Virus genome (UHGV): UHGV-0102871
Origin: a virus
DNA: 12,851 nt
Direction: 5' to 3' (one strand)
Numbering within the stretch: the first letter of the stretch is position 1; each line of letters starts with the position of its first letter. This document shows positions 5,130-9,268 of this stretch, in pieces. The position numbers were made by a program, and so were the translations under genes. The notes under the pieces are model-generated. The model was not told the DNA's origin, did no database searches, and saw nothing but the letters and a program-made list of their open reading frames with translations.

Positions 5130-5807
5130 TTATGGGATGTTTAGTATTTTGGCATCAACCACAACGCCGATGATTTTGCAGTTTCCATTAATTTCTAGCA
5201 TTGGATATGCGGGGTTAAGGGGCTTTAGGAAGCGTCTGCCGGCATCGATTACAAGCTTCTTAAAGGTCGCTTCGTTATCGCCTTCTAGCTTCGCGACAAC
5301 CAGCTTTCCGTTGCGCGGCTCGACTTCAGGATCAACAAGTATCGCTGCTCCCTCGGGTATGCTCAGTCCAGCCGGGGAGGTCATAGAATCCCCTTTAACG
5401 TCCAGCCAGAATGAATCTTCTGAGCAGTCAACAGTCGTGTCATACCAGCGATCTATCGCTCTTCGGTGATAAGGTTCTACAGCTTCCATCCATTGCCCCG
5501 CGCTTACCCAGCTGATTACAGGATAACTTCCTTTTGTCTCGTTCAGTCCTCGAAATGCAACGTTCGAAGGTTCTTCACTGGCGTGTAAAACATCCATCCA
5601 GCCAAAAGGCAGATCAAGCGCAGTTTCAATTTTGCGAGCCATCTTATCGCCGATATTGCGATGAGGGTTTGGTCCCAGTAGCTGGCTAAGCGCAGCCGGA
5701 CTTGTCTCGATGAGCTCGGCAAACTGCGCTTTGGTCATTCCAGACTCGTGCTGACGCTTCTCGTACAGCGCTTCCAGGTTGGCTTTTCTGATTTCTTTAT
5801 TTTCCAT
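5130..5807 (-). CDS. cI: cI-like prophage repressor (HTH N-domain plus LexA/S24 peptidase C-domain), 225 aa
   Basis: C-terminal domain carries the S24 Ser/Lys dyad context (DVKGDSMTSPAG ... ATFKKLV) and LexA-like strands (GAAILVDPEVEPRNGKLVVAKL; KIIGVVVDAKI). N-terminus is HTH-like. Start set at the internal ATG 5807-5805 (MENKEIRK...) just left of the operators; the ORF-track ORF extends to 5924. Confidence 0.85.
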   Translation of the reverse strand: MENKEIRKANLEALYEKRQHESGMTKAQFAELIETSPAALSQLLGPNPHRNIGDKMARKIETALDLPFGWMDVLHASEEPSNVAFRGLNETKGSYPVISWVSAGQWMEAVEPYHRRAIDRWYDTTVDCSEDSFWLDVKGDSMTSPAGLSIPEGAAILVDPEVEPRNGKLVVAKLEGDNEATFKKLVIDAGRRFLKPLNPAYPMLEINGNCKIIGVVVDAKILNIP

Positions 5808-5824: not shown

Positions 5825-5893
5825 TTTTAGCAAAATGATAAATGTGCAAATTGCTAAATGATGCTTGCGTAGTATTTAGCATAACGCTAAACT
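5825..5893. promoter_or_regulatory. oR-like operator cluster with divergent pR/pRM region between cI and cro
   Basis: Sites TTTTAGCAAAATGATAAAT (5825-5843) and ATTTAGCATAACGCTAAAC (5874-5892, 13/14 palindromic) share the oL half-site. Candidate pR: -35 TTGCGT (5865-5870), 17-bp spacer, -10 TAAACT (5888-5893); the stronger operator overlaps the spacer and -10. GGAGA Shine-Dalgarno precedes the cro-like ATG at 5924. Confidence 0.55.
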
Positions 5894-5923: not shown

Positions 5924-6157
5924 ATGAGCACTGAACTACACCGCTGGCGCAAGGCCGCCACTACCGACGAATGGGCGCAGCTCGCAAAGTTGGCTAACAC
6001 GACGCCAGGTTACCTGGACCAGATCGCCTACGGAAATCGCCGGGCATCTCCAGAAATGGCATCTGCTATCGAGAAAGGCACGAAGAATTTTCACCGCCAG
6101 GCTCCGGTCCTAAAAGAAAGCCTGGTATTCGCATCGCCGCGTGATACTGCGGCCTAA
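5924..6157 (+). CDS. Cro-like HTH regulator, YdaS-family (77 aa)
   Basis: Divergent from the repressor and first gene of the rightward operon. Motif GYLDQIAYGNRRASPEMASAIEKGT matches the YdaS-type Cro-like HTH pattern as recalled (YL.Q...G.R..SPEMA.AIEK.T). Confidence 0.7.
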   Translation: MSTELHRWRKAATTDEWAQLAKLANTTPGYLDQIAYGNRRASPEMASAIEKGTKNFHRQAPVLKESLVFASPRDTAA

Positions 6158-6174: not shown

Positions 6175-6717
6175 ATGCATTCACTTGCGTATCAACACAA
6201 TACCGGAATACACCCGGGAGCGATGATAAACCGCGCTCAAGCTAAAGCGACGCCGGACCACGAAAAGATCCGCGATGCGGTCCGTGCCTGGTCATCGGCG
6301 CTGGATAATCAGGACGTGGTGTCAGCGCTGATCATCAACGAATACCGGGAGCAGGGCGGGACCGCCATCAGCTTTCCGGACGACATCAGCCGGGCGCGCC
6401 AGAAGCTGTTCCGCTTCCTGGATAACCGCTTCGACTCTGAGCAGTACCGCGAGAACGTGCGCCAGCTGACGCCCGCAATCATGGCCGTTTTGCCGCTGGA
6501 GTATCGCCATCGACTTCTTCCAGAGGACAGTTTTATGTCCCGCTTAGCTCGACTTGAGAAAGAAACGAGCGAGGCGAAAGTGGCCGTTGCGATGAACGCC
6601 CCGCGTCACCAGAAGCTCAAGGAACTCAGTGAGGGGATTGTAGAGATGTTCCGTGTCGACCCGGATCTGACCGCGCCGCTGATGGCTATGGTCACTTCGA
6701 TGTTGGGGGTTATGTGA
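6175..6717 (+). CDS. YdaT-family protein (180 aa) in the cII-equivalent position
   Basis: AGGGAAAG Shine-Dalgarno upstream. Motifs IINEYREQGG... and TPAIMAVLPLEYRHRL resemble Rac prophage YdaT-family proteins as recalled. Follows the YdaS-like gene as in Rac. Confidence 0.6.
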   Translation: MHSLAYQHNTGIHPGAMINRAQAKATPDHEKIRDAVRAWSSALDNQDVVSALIINEYREQGGTAISFPDDISRARQKLFRFLDNRFDSEQYRENVRQLTPAIMAVLPLEYRHRLLPEDSFMSRLARLEKETSEAKVAVAMNAPRHQKLKELSEGIVEMFRVDPDLTAPLMAMVTSMLGVM

Positions 6718-6953
6718 TGGGAAGTTTCAAAAATGGCGAAAGCCAGTCTGCGCGAACAGAACTGGCCTTCAGATGCAAATCGTGTGCACTCATTGCAGGA
6801 GGAATAATGGCAAAAAATCCACGCTATTACCATACCTCTGTACATAAAAACATAACCCGCGACCGCTTCATCCGCTCGGTTAACCCGATTGTGGCAGAGA
6901 AGATGCGCGCCATCCTGGAAGAACTGAAACGTAAGGAGAGTGGCCGTGGGTAA
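6717..6953 (+). CDS. Small hypothetical protein (78 aa; possibly 48 aa from ATG 6807)
   Basis: ATG 6717 overlaps the YdaT-like stop (TGATG). An in-frame ATG at 6807 has a strong AGGAGG Shine-Dalgarno. The 3' end overlaps the start of the O-like gene. No recognised homology. Confidence 0.4.
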   Translation: MGSFKNGESQSARTELAFRCKSCALIAGGIMAKNPRYYHTSVHKNITRDRFIRSVNPIVAEKMRAILEELKRKESGRG

Positions 6954-7845
6954 CGTATCCAATTTAGCCGAAGCCAGAGAGGCCAGAAGGCTCCAGAAAC
7001 CGCGCACGAATGACGGTAAGGGGTTTGCCTTGCTGCACCGTAAAATTATGGATGTGCCGTTCTACAAGGACGCTGAGGCGGCTCATTTATGGGTTCACAT
7101 GCTCCTGCGTGCTAATCACGAACAGACACTGGTATCTACTGATGTTGGCGATGTGATCTGCGAGCGCGGAGAGTTCATCACCGGGCGAAACACACTGGCA
7201 ATGGAAACGGGTTTGACCGCTGATCGCGTTAAATCCCTTCTCCGTAAATTCCAGAATCTGGGCATGATCACCACCAAATCGAACAACCGTTTTACTGTTC
7301 TAAAAGTGGTCAAATATGACGAATATCAGTCAAATTTTTGTCCAGCAGATGTCCAGCCAGCGTCCAGCCCAAACATAGTCGTACCAATGCCTGCGGAGGT
7401 GGAGTGTCCAGCCGATGTCCAGCCAGTGTCCACAGATAACAATATATTAAATAACTTACTACCTAACGGTAGTAAGTATGTCGCAAATGACCAGAAACCC
7501 GCTGAAGAGAAAAAGTCTCGTTTGTCATGCGATGAAGTATGGCAATGCCTGAAAGACGAACTGCCTGAAGCACGGGGATGGAGATGCCTCACTGATGAGC
7601 GACGCAATCTGATCCGCACATTCTGGGGTAAGGCTAATAAGATTGCCCGCAACCTGGACGGCAAGCCGATGGATATGGACGGTTTCAGAAGCTATCTGCG
7701 TTACATCGCTCAGAACTGCCGCTGGATGCTTGAAGACCGACCAGACCAGAAGTCTGGGAAGACCTGGCGCCGCATGAAATTCGATAAGTTCCTGACCGAA
7801 AAGCTCTACATCGAAGTGCGCGAGGGGGATCGTGATGACCGCTGA
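6940..7845 (+). CDS. Replication initiator (lambda O-like, winged-helix N-domain) containing the candidate origin
   Basis: Directly upstream of and overlapping the DnaB-like helicase gene. Basic HTH-like N-terminus. Iterons and an AT-rich tract lie inside the coding sequence, as in lambda O. GTG start at 6940 or 6946 (AAGGAGA Shine-Dalgarno); exact start uncertain. Confidence 0.7.
   Translation: MAVGNVSNLAEAREARRLQKPRTNDGKGFALLHRKIMDVPFYKDAEAAHLWVHMLLRANHEQTLVSTDVGDVICERGEFITGRNTLAMETGLTADRVKSLLRKFQNLGMITTKSNNRFTVLKVVKYDEYQSNFCPADVQPASSPNIVVPMPAEVECPADVQPVSTDNNILNNLLPNGSKYVANDQKPAEEKKSRLSCDEVWQCLKDELPEARGWRCLTDERRNLIRTFWGKANKIARNLDGKPMDMDGFRSYLRYIAQNCRWMLEDRPDQKSGKTWRRMKFDKFLTEKLYIEVREGDRDDR
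7339..7435. repeat. Iteron array (GTCCAGC core; two ~31-bp units of three iterons at ~11-bp spacing) followed by an AT-rich tract 7437-7480: candidate replication origin
   Basis: GTCCAGC at 7340, 7351, 7362, 7406, 7417, plus degenerate GTCCACA at 7427. Unit 7339-7369 is near-identical to 7405-7435. Encodes the repeated peptide CPADVQPASSP / CPADVQPVSTD. Immediately followed by AATATATTAAATAACTTACTACCTAACGGTAGTAAGTAT. Confidence 0.6.
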
Positions 7846-9268
7846 TTTCATGGCTGTACCACAAAACCTCGAAGCAGAGCAGAGCGTTATCGGTGGCCTG
7901 CTGCTGGATGATGACAACAGCGAGCGAGTCCAGAAGGTTCTGGCGATGCTCAAGCCTGAATCGTTCTACAGCCGACCTCACCAGCTGATCTTTGCCGAGA
8001 TGCGCCAGATGTTCCGCGACAACAAGCCAGTCGATGGTCTGACATTGTTCGACGCGCTCGAAGGCAAAGGGCTCGCGGAGCAGGTAGGTGGCTTTGCTTA
8101 CCTGGCGGAGATCGCCAAGAACACTCCCAGCGCTGCAAACATCGTGGCATACGCTGCGTCAGTCCGGGAAGCCGCAATGGAGCGCTACGGTATCAGCCGC
8201 CTGACCGAAGCTACTGAGCTGCTGTATTCCCGCAATGGCATGAGCGCCACGCAGAAGTACGAGGCCATTCAGGGTATTTTCACCCAGCTCGCAGACCATT
8301 CAAAAACCGGTAGTCGCCGTGGGTTGCGGTCGTTCGGCGAGGTTATGGATGACTGGGTAGCAGATCTGGAGAAACGCTTTGCCCCTTCAGGCGAACAGCG
8401 CGGCATGAGCACCGGCATCCCGTCACTCGACCGGCTGCTGGCGCCGAAAGGTCTGGTTAAAGGCTCTCTGTTCGTGATTGGCGCAAGGCCAAAGATGGGC
8501 AAGACAACCCTGTACGGTCAGATGGCGATCAACTGCGCGGTTCGTGAGAAAAAGCCAGCGCTGATGTTCAGCCTCGAAATGCCGGGCGACCAGATCCTCG
8601 AAAAACTGGTTGGTCAGAAGTCTGGAGTTAACCCGAGCATTTTTTACATGCCAGCCACGGATGACGCCGATGACCAGTACCAGGGCGATTACGACGGCGA
8701 CTTTAAGAAGGCGATCGCCACCGCCGGGCGATTGAGTGAAATCGACATGCTGTACATCGACGATACTCCTGGCCTGTCACTGGCGCACATCGTTAGCGAA
8801 AGCCGCCGAATCAAGCGCGAGAAGGGCTGCGTAGGAATGATTTTGGTTGACTACCTGACTCTGATGACCGCCGAAAAAGCCGACCGTAATGACCTTGCCT
8901 ACGGGATGATCACCAAAGGGTTGAAGAACCTCGCTAAAGAGCTTGGCTGCGTCGTCGTGCTGCTGACCCAGCTCAACCGCGAACTGGAGAAGCGAGTGAA
9001 TAAACGCCCGTTACCGAGCGATTCCCGCGACACAGGACAGATTGAGCAGGACTGCGACTACTGGGTTGGTATCCACCGGGAAGGTGCTTTCGATGACAGC
9101 GTGCCGCCGGGAGAAACCGAGTTAATCCTGCGACTCAATCGCCACGGCAGTACCGGAACGGTTTATTGCAATCAGATCAACGGGGCAATTTACGACACAG
9201 ACCAGCAGGCCGCCGCCGCAGAACGCCGCGGGCGTGAGCAGCAGCCGAAAAAGAAAGGGGGATTCTGA
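7835..9268 (+). CDS. dnaB: Replicative DNA helicase, DnaB family (P22 gp12-like)
   Basis: DnaB N-terminal domain signature (LEAEQSVIGGLLLDD...) and Walker A motif GARPKMGKTTL. Length ~478 aa. Start overlaps the O-like gene's 3' end; start set at ATG 7835, with GTG 7832 also possible. Confidence 0.9.
   Translation: MTADFMAVPQNLEAEQSVIGGLLLDDDNSERVQKVLAMLKPESFYSRPHQLIFAEMRQMFRDNKPVDGLTLFDALEGKGLAEQVGGFAYLAEIAKNTPSAANIVAYAASVREAAMERYGISRLTEATELLYSRNGMSATQKYEAIQGIFTQLADHSKTGSRRGLRSFGEVMDDWVADLEKRFAPSGEQRGMSTGIPSLDRLLAPKGLVKGSLFVIGARPKMGKTTLYGQMAINCAVREKKPALMFSLEMPGDQILEKLVGQKSGVNPSIFYMPATDDADDQYQGDYDGDFKKAIATAGRLSEIDMLYIDDTPGLSLAHIVSESRRIKREKGCVGMILVDYLTLMTAEKADRNDLAYGMITKGLKNLAKELGCVVVLLTQLNRELEKRVNKRPLPSDSRDTGQIEQDCDYWVGIHREGAFDDSVPPGETELILRLNRHGSTGTVYCNQINGAIYDTDQQAAAAERRGREQQPKKKGGF

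Follow-up and report, generated by a model that had tools for sequence, protein, structure and literature searches.

The window analysed here is the whole 12,851 nt stretch of the virus genome UHGV-0102871, to which all coordinates refer. The genes surrounding its replication initiator gene form the early-right operon of a lambdoid phage, with an S24-peptidase repressor and Cro-like HTH, YdaT-like and orf48-like proteins encoded upstream, and a DnaB-family helicase directly downstream. The initiator open reading frame runs from 6940 or 6946 to 7845, with the GTG at 6946 being the likely start, as annotated in the phages CobraSix and Chronis. The protein it encodes is matched along its whole length by phrog_345 ('replication initiation O-like'; E = 1.5e-67), while no Pfam family above threshold and no NCBIfam model was found for it. 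The helicase scores 548 bits against TIGR03600, for which the cut-off is 498.65, and its gene shares 11 nt with the end of the initiator gene if the start is set by analogy with Chronis gp47. The features of this region are as follows.

6946-7845, plus strand: initiator gene, O / gp18-like, of the HK022-HK620-Sf6 type (299 aa; phrog_345 match)
6946-7329, plus strand: N-terminal domain (residues 1-128), with a predicted winged helix at residues 43-121; presumed iteron-binding module
7330-7518, plus strand: inter-domain linker (residues 129-191), predicted to be disordered; all of the cis elements lie within its coding stretch
7339-7368, plus strand: iteron triplet A, GTCCAGC at 7340, 7351 and 7362 with an 11-bp period
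7369-7404, plus strand: inter-triplet spacer, of variable sequence and fixed length
7405-7434, plus strand: iteron triplet B, GTCCAGC at 7406 and 7417 and the degenerate GTCCACA at 7428
7435-7453, plus strand: AT tract, presumed DNA-unwinding element, GATAACAATATATTAAATA (19 bp, 89% A+T)
7454-7477, plus strand: perfect palindrome, ACTTACTACC-TAAC-GGTAGTAAGT (10-bp arms, 4-nt loop)
7519-7842, plus strand: C-terminal helical domain (residues 192-299), presumed helicase-recruiting module
7835-9268, plus strand: phage DnaB-family replicative helicase gene (TIGR03600 phage_DnaB, Pfam DnaB and DnaB_C)

The original prediction, made from the sequence of the window, described five perfect GTCCAGC cores and one degenerate core, forming two near-identical units with a spacing of about 11 bp. 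These are indeed present at the positions listed, the array as a whole covering 7339-7434, and a repeat search recovered two 28-nt units (7339-7366 and 7405-7432) of 93% identity, with Tandem Repeats Finder reporting a period-11 array at 7405-7432. In triplet A each core is preceded by T or C, with a gap of 4 nt between successive cores. The step from core to core is exactly 11 bp within either triplet, and the starts of the triplets are 66 bp (6 × 11) apart, such that all six sites fall in a single helical phase; it is the fixed length of the spacer that keeps triplet B in this register. The repeats are direct only, as the repeat search found no inverted-repeat pairs within the iterons at 7339-7434. 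Such a concentration is not readily obtained by chance: five or more copies of any 7-mer within 100 bp were seen in none of 500 dinucleotide shuffles, the maximum being four, reached once. There are seven copies of GTCCAGC in the entire window, against an expectation of 1.78, a number reached in one of 200 shuffles. The copies outside the array, at 5366 and 5400, lie in the repressor gene, and their possible role as distal sites for the initiator was rejected; they match the chance expectation in number, are separated by 34 bp and so out of the 11-bp phase, and have no GTCCAGC counterpart at the corresponding positions in Chronis. They are taken to be chance occurrences.

Immediately beyond the array, an AT-rich tract of about 44 bp had been proposed. 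The composition stands, with 75% A+T over 7435-7478 compared with 47% for the window, but the stretch is composite, consisting of the 19 bp AT tract followed by the palindrome, which had been overlooked. Calculation of nearest-neighbour free energies locates the least stable duplex of the entire 12.85-kb window at positions starting between 7433 and 7442, whether stretches of 20, 30, 40 or 50 bp are used. Among the 42 more distant relatives listed (distinct and less than 95% identical), the A+T content of the tract ranges from 77 to 95%. The palindrome, folded as single-stranded DNA, has a free energy of -9.3 kcal/mol (z = -3.2), and its conservation is as strong as that of the iterons. Across 23 distinct relatives it occurs as 18 alleles, in which 97.8% of cells are able to pair; double compensatory changes are found at 10/10 pairs, with no one-sided changes. 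The lack of wobble intermediates is as expected of a DNA dyad or a DNA hairpin, rather than of an RNA stem.

The structure of the initiator was modelled with AlphaFold2 from a shallow alignment of 18 sequences, giving a mean pLDDT of 65.7 and a pTM of 0.37. The values for residues 43-121 (about 70-84) and 192-299 (81-92) are separated by those for the linker, residues 129-191, at about 27-36. This agrees with the earlier placement of the array in the linker-coding part of the gene, with a DnaB-type helicase gene next to it. Fold searches with the model returned generic winged-helix DNA-binding domains only, and no solved initiator. The N-terminal domain also matches phrog_2514, 'DnaD-like helicase loader', a family of replication proteins from phages of Gram-positive bacteria (E = 6e-23), and is 31-34% identical to staphylococcal phage proteins; the match of the initiator to Pfam Phage_rep_org_N was far below threshold (E = 0.18, 12.2 bits against a cut-off of 23.3). 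Numbered from the GTG at 6946, the peptide CPADVQP is present at residues 132-138 and again at 154-160, as had been noticed. The linker peptide as a whole is only 23-44% identical between relatives, even though the layout of the underlying DNA is kept.

By sequence, the initiator belongs to the same family as HK022 O. In tblastn searches it is 51-52% identical to HK022 O and HK620 O over 100% of the query (E about 1e-94 to 1e-96), the range widening to 48-52% (E about 1e-84 to 1e-96, again full length) when the gp18 homologue of phage L is included with these two, and by blastp it is 51.7% identical to HK620 O (E = 7e-111). The similarity to Sf6 gp43 is weaker, at 42% over 91% of the query (tblastn, E = 3e-63). 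The GenBank records of HK620 (AF335538), Sf6 (AF547987) and phage L, of the ST64T type (MW013502), each place a replication origin, flagged as 'putative' or 'by similarity', within the O / gene 18-type gene. These features occupy gene offsets 393-488 in HK620, 397-473 in phage L and 386-481 in Sf6, while the array in the window occupies 394-489. Besides this offset, the three phages share with the window the two sets of three direct repeats at 11-bp intervals, the AT tract, a palindrome likewise made up of 10-bp arms and a 4-nt loop, and a DnaB-type helicase gene downstream. The two published phages that are nearly identical to the window, CobraSix (98% DNA identity) and Chronis (93%), carry no origin annotation in this region.

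The conservation of this arrangement was surveyed in 119 loci encoding a relative of the N-terminal domain, drawn from phage records, viral contigs and bacterial genomes and representing 89 distinct origin segments. Two in-phase repeat triplets, an AT tract and a palindrome are found in 89/89 of the distinct segments, and the cores lie at offsets of 0, 11, 22, 66, 77 and 88 in 86 of the 89. The degeneracy of the sixth repeat is shared by nearly all relatives, in which this repeat reads CCAC or CCAT followed by A-rich sequence. The comparison of iterons between related phages, which the original prediction had called for, thus reveals a constant layout in which the core sequence changes with the class of the N-terminal domain: GTCCAGC in the class of the window, TACCAGC in that of HK620, TGCCAAC or TACCAAC in Yersinia and Klebsiella types, GTCCAAC(G) in L and Sf6, ATCCAAN in a further class and TTACCAA in a variant with 12-bp spacing. 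The central CCA is the sole part of the core common to all classes.

Selection on the array acts at the level of nucleotides. Successive copies of the 7-mer in a triplet are translated in different frames, three in all, as CPA, VQP and SS. Among 48 distinct close relatives (at least 95% identity), variable positions amount to 5/42 in the cores, 10/16 in the 4-nt gaps and 24/37 in the spacer (7369-7405), with none of the 19 positions of the AT tract and none of the 20 in the palindrome arms varying. Degenerate third-codon positions vary at 2/26 sites within the elements, compared with 17/36 elsewhere in the 190-nt segment (Fisher p = 8e-4).

The full-length homology to initiators for which a putative origin is annotated at the same gene offset, the layout kept in 119 loci, the constraint at the nucleotide level and the location of the least stable duplex at the AT tract all argue for the candidate phage origin originally proposed. 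It is therefore very probable that theta replication of a lambdoid prophage or phage, with replication of the HK022/HK620/Sf6/ST64T type, starts in this region, inside the phage's own initiator gene, a function inferred from these comparisons. With an iteron sequence of its own, the region adds a new member to an origin type recognised until now by annotation only: literature searches found no experimental study of an HK022/HK620/Sf6-type origin, and the replication specificity of ST64T is given as unstudied by Casjens and co-workers (PMC2629481).

An alternative, considered improbable, is that the true origin lies elsewhere and that the array serves in cis-regulation or copy control, or as a minus-strand terminator. 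The initiator might bind within the gene that encodes it, throttling rightward transcription or 'handcuffing' genomes, and in plasmids iterons are known to function in control as well as in initiation (PMC4980987). The palindrome and the T-rich minus strand could instead form an intrinsic terminator for leftward antisense transcripts: a simple consensus scan scores the palindrome followed by TATTTAATAT as terminator-like on the minus strand, and the phage L record has minus-strand 'terminators' annotated just downstream of the origin feature. However, only four of the ten stem pairs are G-C and the tail is a mixture of A and T, no promoter-like sites were found on either strand between 6600 and 8000, and a comparison with Rfam gave no match in any part of the window. 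The absence of one-sided changes of the G-U type from the covariation of the palindrome points to pairing in DNA rather than in RNA. The AT tract is the least stable duplex of the window, as an unwinding element should be, and the same order of three modules constitutes a functional origin in lambda (PMC7466680).

The modules are not always inherited together. Pairs of relatives were compared for this. Where the N-terminal domain is the same (above 90% identity) and the C-terminal domain different (below 70%), the iterons are the same in 62/62 pairs and the palindrome is different in 62/62; where the C-terminal domain is the same and the N-terminal domain different, the iterons differ in 20/20 pairs and the palindrome is the same in 13/20. 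Hence the C-terminal domain recombines independently of the N-terminal domain. Homologues from Izhakiella and Erwinia likewise keep GTCCAGC with N-terminal domains that are 82-90% identical to that of the window, their C-terminal domains being only 45-49% identical. The residues that distinguish one iteron class from another, while being fixed inside each, are clustered in helix 3 (96-104), in the wing (109-115) and at positions 55-64 and 72-73. Helix 3 and the wing are the usual DNA contacts of a winged helix. Both this clustering and the co-inheritance fit with recognition of the iterons by the N-terminal domain, although the pattern would also result from linkage alone, as the iterons adjoin the sequence encoding this domain. 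Inheritance of the palindrome with the C-terminal domain is also expected from simple physical linkage.

Such mosaicism raises the question of whether the AT tract and the sequences beside it are kept chiefly as a recombination 'boundary sequence' used in the exchange of lambdoid modules, a proposal regarded as highly unlikely. Mosaic breakpoints do fall between the sixth iteron and the palindrome: in loci L083-L090, iterons of the window type are joined to another kind of palindrome and C-terminal domain, L081 combines HK620-type iterons with the palindrome and C-terminal domain of the window type, and boundary sequences are annotated in Sf6. Nevertheless, the location of breakpoints at a conserved stretch is to be expected as a consequence of its conservation rather than the cause, and exchange of modules leaves the iterons, their phasing, the covariation of the palindrome and the extreme instability of the duplex unexplained. 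The idea that the repeats are selected as a duplicated CPADVQP linker peptide, for instance a cysteine- or proline-containing interaction motif, with the periodicity of the DNA as a by-product, can be rejected as extremely improbable, because, although the 66-bp unit distance is divisible by three, meaning that the peptide is truly duplicated, and P133, Q137, P155 and Q159 are invariant in a nine-sequence alignment, the 7-mer is read in three frames within a triplet, its degenerate third positions are frozen in the cores while varying nearby, the linker is predicted to be disordered, the peptide differs by class (CPADVQP, VPADYQQ, CPTDVQR, VPTECQQ) under a constant 11-bp phasing, and the invariant P and Q follow from the CCA present in every core.

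If the region is an origin, as favoured here, its resemblance to ori-lambda, the architecture that had been proposed for it, lies in the order of its modules. In lambda and Stx phages, iterons followed by an AT tract within O have been found experimentally to be an origin, with the AT tract of lambda being the unwinding element (PMC7466680). The window has the same succession of iterons, AT-rich tract and palindrome, lying mid-gene, where the linker that joins the N-terminal DNA-binding domain to the C-terminal recruiting domain is encoded; the lambda palindrome has arms of about 12 bp and a 4-nt loop, and in the origin sequences of both lambda and P22 a palindrome lies just to the right of the AT tract. 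The correspondence does not extend to the components themselves. Lambda O exists as a dimer and binds 19-bp imperfect inverted repeats (PMC7466680), its four iterons of 18/19 bp being dyad-symmetric, whereas the window has six 7-bp direct repeats in two groups of three with no internal dyad. Membership of the initiator in the lambda O family was rejected for lack of significant similarity: there was no blastp match to lambda O, Pfam Phage_rep_O was absent even at E <= 1, and comparison by hhalign of the family profile with lambda O and P22 gp18 gave a probability of 0.66% (E = 0.087). Furthermore, lambda O recruits the P-DnaB complex, while this phage encodes its own DnaB-type helicase instead of a lambda-P-type loader. 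As the type of iteron, the family of the N-terminal domain and the partner in helicase recruitment all differ, the origin is lambda-like in module order only.

P22 is similar in its gene order (orf48, initiator, DnaB-type helicase) and in having its origin within the initiator gene. The C-terminus of P22 gp18 also has weak similarity to the C-terminal domain of the initiator in the window (26% over 117 aa, E = 6e-4), which fits with both being paired with a DnaB-type helicase. By contrast, the N-terminal domain of gp18 is of the lambda type, with 43% identity to lambda O, and the P22 iterons are lambda-like dyads (GGTAAAAC...TTTACC), so that the N-terminal domain and iterons of the window are of a different class. 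Binding of 7+4-bp direct repeats head to tail by winged helices, with an 11-bp period, is characteristic of the pho boxes recognised by PhoB/OmpR-type proteins. These resemble the array in geometry only, namely a 7-bp core and a 4-bp variable gap every 11 bp; the protein family is unrelated and acts in transcription rather than replication. Direct repeats beside an AT-rich unwinding element are also found in oriL of SPP1, within the gene of the replisome organiser G38P, which binds these repeats, in a phage that uses a DnaB-family helicase of its own (PMC6316719). SPP1 has the separate loader G39P, whereas in the window there is no loader gene between the initiator and the overlapping helicase gene, an adjacency that is also annotated in Chronis, HK620, L and Sf6.

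In the mechanism proposed on this basis, the winged-helix N-terminal domain of the initiator would bind the six 7-bp cores, which, being in one phase at 11-bp steps, lie on one face of the helix. Initiator monomers might then bind head to tail, bending or wrapping the DNA, and on a supercoiled template the resulting strain could open the adjacent 19-bp AT tract. The C-terminal domain would recruit the DnaB-type helicase of the phage itself, encoded directly downstream, making a lambda-P-type loader unnecessary. The palindrome beside the AT tract is envisaged to work at the level of DNA, as an extruded hairpin or cruciform or as a dyad binding site, and might limit or stabilise the bubble or mark the entry point of the helicase.

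A more specific version, thought rather unlikely, is that the origin is a two-part lock, with the iterons being read by the N-terminal domain, and the palindrome adding a further, independent layer of specificity that matches the C-terminal domain and the phage's DnaB-type helicase. The palindrome may then be, for example, a hairpin or cruciform signal for helicase entry, with the two halves of the lock being swapped by recombination in the AT tract. Were this the case, the palindrome, which is also present in the origins of lambda and P22, would be a functional determinant of helicase loading rather than a passive neighbour.

The window differs from HK620, L and Sf6 in core (GTCCAGC, compared with TACCAGC in HK620 and TGTCCAACG in L and Sf6), in the allele of its palindrome and in the class-specific residues of helix 3 and the wing, and a different replication specificity from these three phages is therefore predicted. 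This locates the likely origin, and predicts the distinct GTCCAGC specificity, of prophages that are widespread in Enterobacter, Klebsiella, Salmonella and Kosakonia, and the same prediction covers the sequenced phages CobraSix and Chronis. More generally, the survey provides a specificity code in which six or more classes of core are each paired with putative recognition residues, located in helix 3 and in the wing. The origin type is common in lambdoid phages, including the Stx-converting phages of the VT2-Sakai group, and appears to be experimentally unstudied; none of these results overturns current understanding. Defence systems such as Lamassu are reported to target, or to be triggered by, phage origins and palindromes (PMC12663957), which gives maps of origins a practical use.

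Natural test cases are available in the N/C mosaics, in the variant with 12-bp spacing and in variants that have lost a triplet. The last of these are initiators of 277 aa, encoded on 20 contigs from Klebsiella and Salmonella prophages, in which a deletion of exactly 66 bp leaves one triplet while the AT tract, the palindrome and the helicase gene are kept. This implies either that the six sites are not all required, or that those prophages are replication-defective. In lambda, two iterons and the AT tract are enough in vitro (cited in PMC7466680), hence an origin with three sites may still work. The one-triplet variants occur in apparently intact Salmonella prophages. A single variant of 246 aa, without the AT tract, the palindrome and part of the C-terminal domain, is probably defective.

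The breakpoint of the mosaic initiators (related loci L083-L090, L095 and L081, compared with window 7430-7480) falls within or adjoining the conserved AT tract. Some of these mosaics have an ENT47670-type palindrome and C-domain attached to a window-type N-domain and iterons, and at L081 a window-type palindrome and C-domain are attached to iterons of the HK620 type.

The initiator is also observed to vary in length. Natural variants of the protein (P0002-P0008) are 277 aa long, with an exact 66-bp deletion in the gene that leaves a single iteron triplet, TGTCCAGCCGA TGTCCAGCCGG TGTCCACAG, as exemplified by a Salmonella enterica prophage (L124:6360-6520); the AT tract, the palindrome and the helicase gene are all retained intact. 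Such one-triplet variants are found on 20 contigs from Salmonella, and similar proteins are present in Klebsiella. A shorter deletion variant of 246 aa (P0026), found on one 2.3-kb contig, has triplet 2 fused directly to the C-domain (…VQPV|FTDERRN…). The AT tract, the palindrome and approximately 50 residues are thereby lost, and this copy is probably defective.

In Silvania hatchlandensis (L116) and a Leclercia MAG (L117), TTACCAA-type repeats positioned about 50-150 nt past the KYDEYQ codons are spaced at 12 bp rather than 11 bp, with the 3+3 arrangement retained and a triplet-to-triplet distance of 68 bp. In four HK620-type loci (L002, L100, L102 and L103), and likewise in L007, L108, L110, L111 and L113, the spacer between the triplets contains an additional in-phase CCA (e.g. 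AAGCCAGC) at an offset of +33; this may represent a seventh, degenerate iteron.

The DNA immediately to the left of the iterons (window 7312-7339) is AT-rich too, at 79% A+T, and the 50-bp segment starting at 7290 has the fourth-lowest duplex stability in the window. Hence DNA that melts readily borders the iteron array to the left as well as to the right.

Further upstream, the following features were identified:

Window 5366-5372 and 5400-5406: two more copies of GTCCAGC(C), 34 bp apart, inside the repressor gene
Window 5826-5842, 5842-5858 and 5875-5891: three operator-like sites, TTTAGC-N5-GCTAAA, in the region that separates the repressor gene from the divergently oriented cro-like gene
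Window 6175-6717: YdaT-family protein (Pfam YdaT_toxin, E 7e-27)
Window 6714-6953: orf48/hkaW-like small gene, upstream of the initiator

The two GTCCAGC(C) copies were rejected as candidate distal initiator sites, as their number equals the chance expectation and they are not in 11-bp phase; at the corresponding positions in the near-identical phage Chronis, GTCCAGC is absent. For the repressor, the probable start codon is the minus-strand ATG at 5807, rather than the TTG at 5924 given in the ORF list. The YdaT-family gene fills a slot occupied by cII/c1 in lambda and P22, and by different genes in Chronis and a Salmonella relative.

The orf48/hkaW-like gene is named 'tail protein' by PHROGs (phrog_1913) and several RefSeq records, a label that is doubtful because P22, HK022 and HK620 all carry the gene at this conserved position within their replication modules. 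Its 3' end is overlapped by the 5'-most ~150 nt of the initiator gene (window 6947-7098), a stretch with ~85% DNA identity to the O genes of HK620, HK022, mEp235 and Stx-phage. Beyond ~7098 this likeness falls off, in what looks like a mosaic boundary.
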